Of a DNA stretch of 64,000 bases, positions 35,171 to 35,470 are shown one piece after another; within the stretch, counting starts at the first letter, position 1; each line of letters starts with the position of its first letter. The notes under the pieces are model-generated. The model was given only the letters and a program-made list of their open reading frames with translations. It was not told the origin of the DNA and did no database searches. Both the position numbers and the translations under genes were made by a program. Where the stretch lies: the sequence record PP925844.1; one strand, given 5' to 3'. The stretch comes from Escherichia phage Elenatom.

Positions 35171-35470
35171 GCCTTGCGGCAACCTTGTCGGGGTTCCACC
35201 TGCTAAGGCAAGTGTTTGTACGAAACGCCGGGATTCGAACCCGGTTATTAAGTAGTTGACGCTACTCAATATTTTTAAAAGGCCATATCTCGACCATATC
35301 CGAACGTTCCGTCAAAAACGCTACTCGGCTTACGGCAAAGATATTTCCTCGAATCGATAATTCGGTGCGCCGTTTCTGCTGTGATAGTAAAGAGCCAGAA
35401 CACAGTAAAACTGTGGGAGGAAACTATACTCCAGGGAACATCAGTCCGACGACTTACCGGTAGCGACCCG
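35171..35470 (-). ncRNA. Putative small stable RNA(s) with tRNA-like T-arm (position of T4 species 1/2 RNAs)
   Basis: Non-coding, structured; T-arm-like CCGGGTTCGAATCCCGG; ends at rho-independent terminator. Confidence 0.35.

Follow-up and report, generated by a model that had tools for sequence, protein, structure and literature searches.

Introduction

What is encoded at the downstream end of the tRNA cluster of Escherichia phage Elenatom, in about 300 nucleotides (nt) that an initial annotation of the sequence had described as structured, non-coding and equipped with the T-arm of a tRNA? The DNA analysed here, called the window throughout, is a stretch of 64,000 nt (sequence record PP925844.1) from a phage of the T2/T4-like Tequatrovirus type, and the genes in this part of it lie on the minus strand. 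As judged by comparison with T4 and more distant relatives, the interval comprises the rnaD and rnaC genes of the phage, the final elements of the tRNA-cluster transcription unit, and rnaC is predicted to fold over its whole length as a mimic of tRNA.

The identity of the two genes is already known from T4, where their products are the species 1 (rnaC) and species 2 (rnaD) RNAs. These small stable RNAs have been known since the 1970s, and a tRNA-like drawing of species 1 may have been proposed early. T4 RNAC has been seen on a northern blot as a late RNA (PMC9697503), the species I gene is presumed to be the last part of the T4 tRNA cluster to be transcribed (PMC2330249), and RNAC and RNAD are both described as late RNAs whose functions are unknown (PMC9697503; PMC3014915). 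The covariation-backed architecture of rnaC and its spread among tRNA arrays, presented below, were not found described in the literature searched, a search outside which the primary papers of the 1970s and 1980s lie.

Identity of the locus

On the minus strand, eleven tRNA genes (36862-35845, from ARAGORN and Rfam) are followed by an open reading frame (ORF) of 116 amino acids (aa; 35826-35476), rnaD, rnaC, a trailer hairpin and a terminator. The sequence from 35479 to 35141 can be aligned end to end with the annotated rnaD and rnaC of T4 and continues into the same trailer hairpin and terminator. In the T4 reference genome (NC_000866) both genes are misc_RNA features, with rnaC at 70908-71046 ('species 1 RNA') and rnaD at 71053-71171 ('small, stable RNA; species 2 RNA'), and the arrangement of rnaD, a 6-nt spacer and rnaC is the same as in the window. 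The parts of the interval, all on the minus strand, are as follows.

35364-35479: rnaD, counterpart of T4 species 2 RNA, about 116 nt, with a conserved 5' part AAGAAACCGGGUCGCUACCGGUAAGUCGUCGGACUGAUGUUCCCUG and a conserved 3' part AUCACAGCAGAAACGGCGCACC
35357-35363: rnaD-rnaC spacer GAAUUAU, whose last U (35357) is position -1 of rnaC and is counted by the T4 annotation as rnaC base 1
35217-35356: rnaC, counterpart of T4 species 1 RNA, 140 nt when C1 of the acceptor stem and A76 of the U-A-C-A tail are taken as its ends

The T4 GenBank annotation of rnaC, which is 139 nt long and starts one base ahead of the terminal acceptor strand, maps onto 35357-35219, and there is one base difference from T4 inside the RNA. 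The earlier proposal that this position corresponds to the site of the T4 small stable RNAs is therefore borne out by the alignment, and the two sites hold the same gene pair. In T4 a single base separates rnaD from the tRNA-Arg that the initial annotation names, whereas here the 116-aa ORF intervenes, matching the T2L-type layout (PMC2330249). Extra tRNAs and two ORFs in place of segB have been described for the T2L-type tRNA region (PMC2330249).

Over positions 35100-35500 the window and Escherichia phage vB_EcoM_ESCO58 are 100% identical, 761 phage records match this part at 80% identity or more, and a blastn search with the interval found matches in 820 phage records. The predicted minimum free energy (MFE) of the 341-nt transcript is -124.1 kcal/mol, as against -97.8 ± 5.75 kcal/mol in dinucleotide shuffles (z = -4.57), and 0 of 100 shuffles folded as well. 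The whole-region MFE structure pairs GAAAC in the 5' part of rnaD with GUUUC in the 3' part of rnaC; this pairing was discarded because most genera have rnaC without rnaD. ORFs inside the interval are short, at most 53 aa, and begin with TTG or GTG, with the 116-aa ORF lying upstream, in agreement with the earlier statement that no convincing ORF is present.

The tRNA-like fold of rnaC

The structure of rnaC was modelled from an alignment of 29 distinct homologues drawn from at least nine named Straboviridae genera. The model has 34 base pairs and was compared with 500 shuffles of the alignment and with versions in which the partners were slid out of register. The predicted elements, again on the minus strand and in 5' to 3' order, are given here.

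35350-35356: acceptor stem, 5' strand CGAUUCG, pairing with 35227-35221
35280-35349: arm I, a long irregular hairpin of 70 nt closed by conserved AGG and CC(U), at the position of the D and anticodon arms
35310-35315: loop I, UUGACG, at the tip of arm I, the exact complement of loop II CGUCAA (35261-35256)
35272-35279: linker, single-stranded, consensus UU-NNN-AAAAU; reads UUUUAAAAAU from 35281 if the flanking pairs open
35246-35271: arm II, a hairpin of 9-10 base pairs (bp) with the 6-nt loop II CGUCAA (35261-35256), followed by two A residues before the T-stem
35228-35244: T-arm CCGGG-UUCGAAU-CCCGG
35217-35227: acceptor stem, 3' strand CGUUUCG (35227-35221), then U73 (35220) and A-C-A (35219-35217)

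Across the 34 pairs, 91% of alignment cells are paired, compared with 79% in the shuffles and 34-48% when the partners are slid. Changes on both sides of a pair are found at 21 of the 34, and no shuffle among the 500 reached either this number or the 91% pairing. Together with the folding energy of the transcript, these changes confirm that the region is structured. A covariance model (R1) built from the alignment has a single match in the window, at 168 bits; it has no match in the loci of phages without rnaC, and one rnaC copy was found per genome region searched.

The 7-bp acceptor stem is built from the 5' and 3' ends of rnaC itself (alignment columns 7-13 with 140-146), and three of its pairs have changed on both sides. 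Pair 3 is G-C in 19 homologues, A-U in 9 and G-U in 1, A-U being the form of T4-like phages and G-C that of most other genera, and pair 1 is A-U in the Mosugukvirus phage PM2. Pairs 4 and 5 are U·U in 26 of the 29 and Watson-Crick in PM2 and two Tegunavirus sequences, in which the stems read AGGUUCG/CGAAUCU and CGGUCCG/CGGACUG, respectively. U73, C75 and A76 are invariant in all 29. The encoded tail is U-A-C-A here and U-CCA in PM2 and the Klebsiella-phage group, and position -1 is U in at least 90% of the homologues.

The T-arm singled out in the initial annotation is present at 35244-35228 and is 100% paired among the homologues. Two of its five pairs co-vary, pair 3 occurring as G-C, U-A and U-G, and Klebsiella phage KaAlpha adds an A-U variant. 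In arm II the stem (35270-35247) has two-sided changes at all nine pairs. Arm I exists as two sequence types, A and B, that cannot be aligned with each other, and the same overall fold was predicted independently for most of the 29 sequences. Both types are capped by a 5-bp stem and a 6-nt loop, and this apical stem is 100% paired with covariation at 5 of 5 pairs. Invariant unpaired motifs are AGGA directly following the acceptor strand, GGCC at the closure of arm I, AAAAU in the linker, whose A-run is invariant or nearly so, and AA before the T-stem.

Loops I and II can form six inter-loop pairs, and 99.4% of the cells at these positions are paired. The two loops are complementary over all six positions in 28 of 29 homologues and over four in PM2. 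Two compensatory loop variants have arisen independently, UUGAUG/CAUCAA in Tegunavirus and UUGGCG/CGCCAA in the Klebsiella-phage group; the changes are A-U to G-C in seven sequences and C-G to U-A in two. This complementarity has been kept even though types A and B cannot be aligned over the remainder of arm I. We regard the case that the loops kiss within one rnaC molecule as strong, on this comparative evidence, but not proven.

The whole RNA of about 140 nt is thus best described, from its comparative structure, as a single tRNA mimic, with an acceptor stem, a T-arm and a U73-N-C-A end, in which the anticodon arm has been replaced. The tRNA-like element noticed in the initial annotation is real; what had been taken for a local T-arm within a 300-nt RNA belongs to the acceptor/T-arm core of a discrete rnaC. 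Like a canonical tRNA (RF00005), rnaC has a 7-bp stem joining its ends, a 5-bp T-stem with a UUCGAAU loop of the GUUCRANYC type and N-C-A after its discriminator base, and it occurs in tRNA arrays. Unlike a tRNA, it is about 140 nt long, carries a tandem U·U in the acceptor stem and is without D-arm and anticodon arm, their place being taken by the 70-nt arm I and by a 9-bp hairpin whose loop has 6 nt. It falls below the Rfam threshold for tRNA, and ARAGORN makes no tRNA call for rnaC in the window. An Rfam scan had been proposed as a check on the initial annotation; Rfam 15 gave no match above threshold, a null that is uninformative because this release has no rnaC or rnaD family. Scans of the window and three divergent homologues, at the gathering threshold and at E values up to 10, returned true tRNAs and noise only.

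Two other classes of RNA invite comparison. The tRNA-like domain of transfer-messenger RNA (tmRNA) is an acceptor/T-arm module that has no anticodon arm and in which a long helix leaves from the D-arm position, and in this rnaC would resemble it. It differs from tmRNA in having no tag frame, no pseudoknot ring and no G3·U70 (pair 3 is A-U or G-C), and neither ARAGORN nor Rfam reports a tmRNA match. YrlA RNAs (Y-RNA-like) are non-coding RNAs with a tRNA-like module, some of them located beside phage tRNA genes. The Ro-binding stem of YrlA is made by the RNA ends, with the tRNA-like part inside, whereas in rnaC the ends form the acceptor stem, and there is no Rfam match.

The same T-arm could be assigned to a shorter molecule, a 94-nt class-II tRNA-Lys(UUU) in which the internal CGGAACG (35312-35306) is the 5' acceptor strand, CUUUUAA the anticodon loop and arm II the variable arm. 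Such a gene is annotated in GenBank for Mosigvirus phage 55 (OQ599310, locus L012, 1247-1340), where the 3' 94 nt of rnaC carry the label tRNA-Lys and ARAGORN makes the same call; a weak Rfam match to tRNA-Sec covers 35220-35312 (17 bits, E = 2.6), and CGGAACG is able to pair with CGUUUCG in T4-like sequences. The alignment speaks otherwise. Pair 3 of that acceptor stem is unpaired in 16 and pair 4 in 13 of the 29 homologues, two-sided change is confined to one pair in one sequence, and the stem clashes with the fully paired, co-varying apical hairpin of arm I. An anticodon stem cannot be drawn, the triplet in the anticodon position varies by genus (UUU, UUG, UCU, UAU, CAU, UAC), ARAGORN does not make the call in the window, and the annotated T4 RNA is 139 nt long and begins one base before the terminal acceptor strand. 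We consider a tRNA-Lys very improbable. CGGAACG had also been our first structural guess for the acceptor partner, and it was ruled out by the Tegunavirus and type-B sequences and then by the pair count.

The linker region (35272-35283; alignment columns 82-96) reads C-U-NNN-A-A, like an anticodon loop. The triplet NNN is UUU in T4-like phages and UCU in Tegunavirus; Karamvirus, Erwinia phage COW86c and Gelderlandvirus share UUG, Klebsiella phages have UAU or CAU, and one further homologue (L055) has UAC. These genus-specific triplets may be neutral drift of a spacer. T4-like phages do meet host nucleases that cut the anticodon loop of tRNA-Lys(UUU).

Distribution of rnaC among phages

By blastn, rnaC alone is found in 761 records and reaches genera far from T4, while rnaD is found in 734, all of them T4-like relatives apart from one Providencia phage. 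In Karamvirus, Erwinia phage COW86c and Gelderlandvirus, rnaC occupies a 150-nt gap between tRNA-Trp and tRNA-Gly, without rnaD. It lies between tRNA-Met and tRNA-Gly in Moonvirus and directly upstream of tRNA-Trp in Tegunavirus and Mosugukvirus PM2. Further carriers are Kanagawavirus, Marfavirus, Citrobacter phage Ursula, Proteus phage ABTNLPp2 and Klebsiella phage KaAlpha. Conservation of rnaC is 74-87% across genera whose flanking sequences differ. Since each of the two RNAs is found without the other or has been lost among relatives, rnaC and rnaD are separable units, each of which can be lost.

Pattern scans extended this range. In IMG/VR a strict pattern found one locus and looser patterns 11 and 44, after which many chance matches were filtered out; a metagenome scan found 15 loci, of which 4 were false, and the two kinds of scan yielded further rnaC variants. 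A pattern scan of genome contigs was non-specific and gave chance matches in G+C-rich genomes only, and no host homologue was found in 5,426 complete E. coli genomes.

Annotation of the locus is uneven. Few records carry rnaC and rnaD features, mis-annotation is common, and many records place one to three coding sequences for hypothetical proteins over the two genes, as though the short frames were real genes; minus-strand ORFs of 42 and 53 aa do exist in the interval. These frames are short and start with TTG or GTG. Substitutions between genera follow the RNA pairing, with two-sided changes at the 21 pairs already counted, and the loci L012 and L070 of near-identical relatives differ by 1-nt indels in the linker. 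In other genera rnaC sits between tRNA genes with no space for a protein gene, and T4 produces stable RNAs from the corresponding DNA. That the interval codes for protein is hardly credible, and is the least probable of all the readings weighed here.

The structure of rnaD

The second RNA of the pair was examined through a consensus of 16 distinct homologues that were aligned and folded with RNAalifold. It matches T4 almost base for base over 45 nt at the 5' end and 22 nt at the 3' end, and the central 45 nt or so are unalignable, with a hairpin of unrelated sequence and similar shape in the same place. The other two helices of the consensus (minus strand) are these.

35456-35472: P1 hairpin ACCGG-GUCGCUA-CCGGU, a 5-bp stem with an invariant 7-nt loop
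35365-35453: P2, a long-range helix of GUCGUCG (35453-35447) with CGGCG-C-AC (35372-35365), enclosing a CUGAUG/AGAAA internal loop and the central hairpin

The closing pair of P1 co-varies (A-U in 10, G-C in 5 and G-U in 1), and the other four pairs are kept, with one change from C-G to U-G. The sequence of the central hairpin has been swapped wholesale between lineages and its stem kept, with covariation of columns 56-58 with 104-106. The consensus contains no T-arm. The tRNA-like character that the initial annotation had suggested for the stable RNAs hence belongs to rnaC and does not extend to rnaD, which is a separate structured RNA, not tRNA-like, and restricted to T4-like relatives. A hammerhead ribozyme, brought to mind by CUGAUG...GAAAC in rnaD, was also considered and rejected: there is a U at the A9 site, a stem I hairpin is missing between the 5' strand and CUGAUG, a closing pair of the A15.1-U16.1 type cannot be drawn, and Rfam reports no match.

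Trailer hairpin and terminators

Beyond rnaC the transcription unit ends in two hairpins on the minus strand.

35197-35214: trailer hairpin CACUUGC-CUUA-GCAGGUG, just 3' of rnaC
35145-35168: intrinsic terminator AGCCCCGACC-GAAA-GGUUGGGGCU, a 10-bp stem with 7 G-C pairs, then TTTTT, the U-run extending to about 35140

The trailer hairpin shows one compensatory change, from G-C to A-U, in Mosigvirus phage 55 (L012), and is retained in phages that have lost rnaC, namely JS98 (L198) and AV115 (L007). The terminator at 35168-35145 closes the unit of tRNA genes, rnaD and rnaC, and the initial annotation had already placed a strong terminator at the end of the interval. A near-identical terminator, AGCCCUAGCC-GAAA-GGUUGGGGCU, lies at 34590-34613 on the minus strand, so that two such hairpins end consecutive transcription units. 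The motif CCCCGAC recurs upstream of the rnaC terminator, at about 35192-35186, which gives the 3' strand of the terminator two possible partners.

Maturation and possible functions of rnaC

A minihelix of acceptor stem and T-arm with U at -1 is a minimal substrate of RNase P. Because rnaC has this minihelix, its acceptor stem stacking on the canonical T-arm, and this U, it is a predicted RNase P substrate: the enzyme would cut the 5' end of rnaC out of the polycistronic precursor as it does for tRNAs. The 3' end may be made by the enzymes of tRNA 3' trimming and repair, or by RNase P acting at the next tRNA where one follows. Ends of this tRNA-like kind and a compact core could account for the stability of the RNA. 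Lacking an anticodon arm, rnaC is unable to decode.

What would such an RNA do? One proposal is that mature rnaC acts in trans, as a decoy that occupies a protein which recognises tRNAs by their acceptor/T-arm part; the most attractive target would be a host factor restricting infection of certain strains. We put this forward tentatively, as possible rather than probable, and it is the likeliest of the functions considered. A fuller version, in which rnaC represents a family of non-decoding tRNA mimics, locked by the kissing loops, matured by the host and sponging, for example, a tRNA-directed defence nuclease or toxin, is somewhat more doubtful again. A hint of a host-specific role for the RNAs comes from a 2025 experiment with a T4-like phage evolved on the semi-permissive strain ECOR34, in which three of three lines shared one single-nucleotide polymorphism (SNP) in rnaD and the virulence index rose from 0.17 to 0.98 (PMC12685909).

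Alternatively, rnaC could work in cis, as a handle for processing or stability that serves the neighbouring RNAs and the 3' end of the precursor, the stable RNA being a by-product. Its position always within or at the end of tRNA transcription units, its minimal RNase P substrate features (acceptor stem, T-arm and U at -1) and its dispensability in some lineages suit such a role. An ordinary tRNA would suffice for it, however, and in most genera the flanking tRNAs already provide processing sites; the conserved arm II, the compensating kissing loops, the A-rich linker and the U73-N-C-A tail would be left unexplained. A role in cis is accordingly unlikely in our estimation, and ranks below the decoy.

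The tail raises a further alternative, that rnaC is aminoacylated or CCA-ended and serves as a non-ribosomal carrier of an amino acid or as a tmRNA-like ligand of the ribosome. An acceptor stem, a T-arm and invariant U73, C75 and A76 are what such a molecule might have, PM2 and the Klebsiella-phage group encode the full CCA, and the short GGA-containing segment that follows the acceptor strand, with a long helix after it, would be reminiscent of the tRNA-like domain of tmRNA. T4-like phages nevertheless encode A74, not C74, and no set of synthetase identity elements is evident; there is no G3·U70 and no tag frame, and neither ARAGORN nor Rfam calls a tmRNA. A charged, tmRNA-like rnaC comes third in the ranking and seems to us decidedly improbable.

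Weighing the evidence

Taken as a whole, the explanation offered here, which combines the identity of rnaD and rnaC, the tRNA-mimic fold of rnaC and the proposed processing and decoy role, is in our judgement very probably the best one, with the decoy role standing at the lower odds given above. Several observations count against it. The pairs of rnaD P2 are invariant or are broken in one or two sequences, so that helix is without covariation support, and the G-G/C-C closure of arm I is invariant, so covariation speaks neither for nor against it. The kissing helix depends on just two independent compensatory events, plus the 4-bp form in PM2. Dhakavirus JS98 and Providencia phage PSTCR6 have rnaD and lack rnaC, and Mosigvirus AV115 has neither; by these genome sequences both RNAs are dispensable in some relatives. 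The ECOR34 SNP sits in rnaD, not in rnaC, and could act through transcription or processing. Finally, the decoy function is something we infer, and the mature ends in this phage are likewise deduced from sequence.

In JS98 (L198, 1500-1700) the trailer hairpin and the terminator come straight after rnaD, rnaC being precisely missing. In AV115 (OR352945, L007, 1451-1522) a gene annotated as tRNA-Asn is a chimera: the 5' two-thirds of a tRNA run, at the T-loop GGUUCGAAUCC, into the final 22 nt of rnaC and on into the trailer and the terminator, and the acceptor strands are unable to pair. It looks like the outcome of a deletion of rnaD and rnaC by recombination between T-loops.

Given that the tRNA arrays of these phages are prone to recombination, as the AV115 chimera and the deletion of rnaC in JS98 illustrate, the region might be thought a functionless remnant of decaying tRNA genes. 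We give this idea almost no credence: rnaC is 74-87% conserved across genera with differing flanks, compensatory change maintains the pairing in every helix, the unpaired motifs are invariant, and a stable RNA has been detected in T4.

Neighbouring elements

A conserved structured element of 114 nt lies in the tRNA-Asn/tRNA-His spacer (36001-36114, minus strand), directly 5' of tRNA-His, with an MFE of -32.7 kcal/mol (z = -4.36). It is unannotated in 355 phage records, including those of Klebsiella, Enterobacter, Proteus and Salmonella phages, and T4 is without it. In the loci examined it is always immediately upstream of tRNA-His; in eleven sequences a 14-bp closing helix reaches the 5' end of that tRNA, and compensatory changes occur at 8 of 22 predicted pairs. 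The element is a candidate for a third small RNA or for a leader of tRNA-His.

The tRNA at 36290-36364 (minus strand) is called tRNA-Met, anticodon CAT, by ARAGORN. Its T4 counterpart, after tRNA-Thr, is annotated as tRNA-Ile, and a CAT tRNA of phage Ursula is annotated as Ile2; it is probably a lysidine-dependent tRNA-Ile.

The 116-aa ORF (35476-35826, minus strand) between tRNA-Arg and rnaD belongs to phrog_3355 (E = 8e-53), a family of unknown function that is also annotated beside the tRNA array of one Karamvirus, and its product may be a tRNA-cluster-associated protein. This protein and a neighbouring one of 157 aa have no Pfam match and match only PHROG families of unknown function.

Conclusions

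The comparative fold supplies rnaC with defined ends, with one tertiary contact that can be broken and restored, and with a short list of invariant unpaired nucleotides. It presents rnaC as an independent unit that occurs across the tRNA arrays of at least nine named Straboviridae genera, and rnaD as lineage-restricted. The widespread mis-annotation of the locus, with hypothetical proteins laid over the RNAs and one false tRNA-Lys, is something that an Rfam family could fix. A SNP in rnaD with a large gain of virulence on one natural E. coli strain makes a role in the interaction with the host worth testing. If the decoy proposal is true, rnaC together with rnaD would be a determinant of host range and not a part of the translation machinery.

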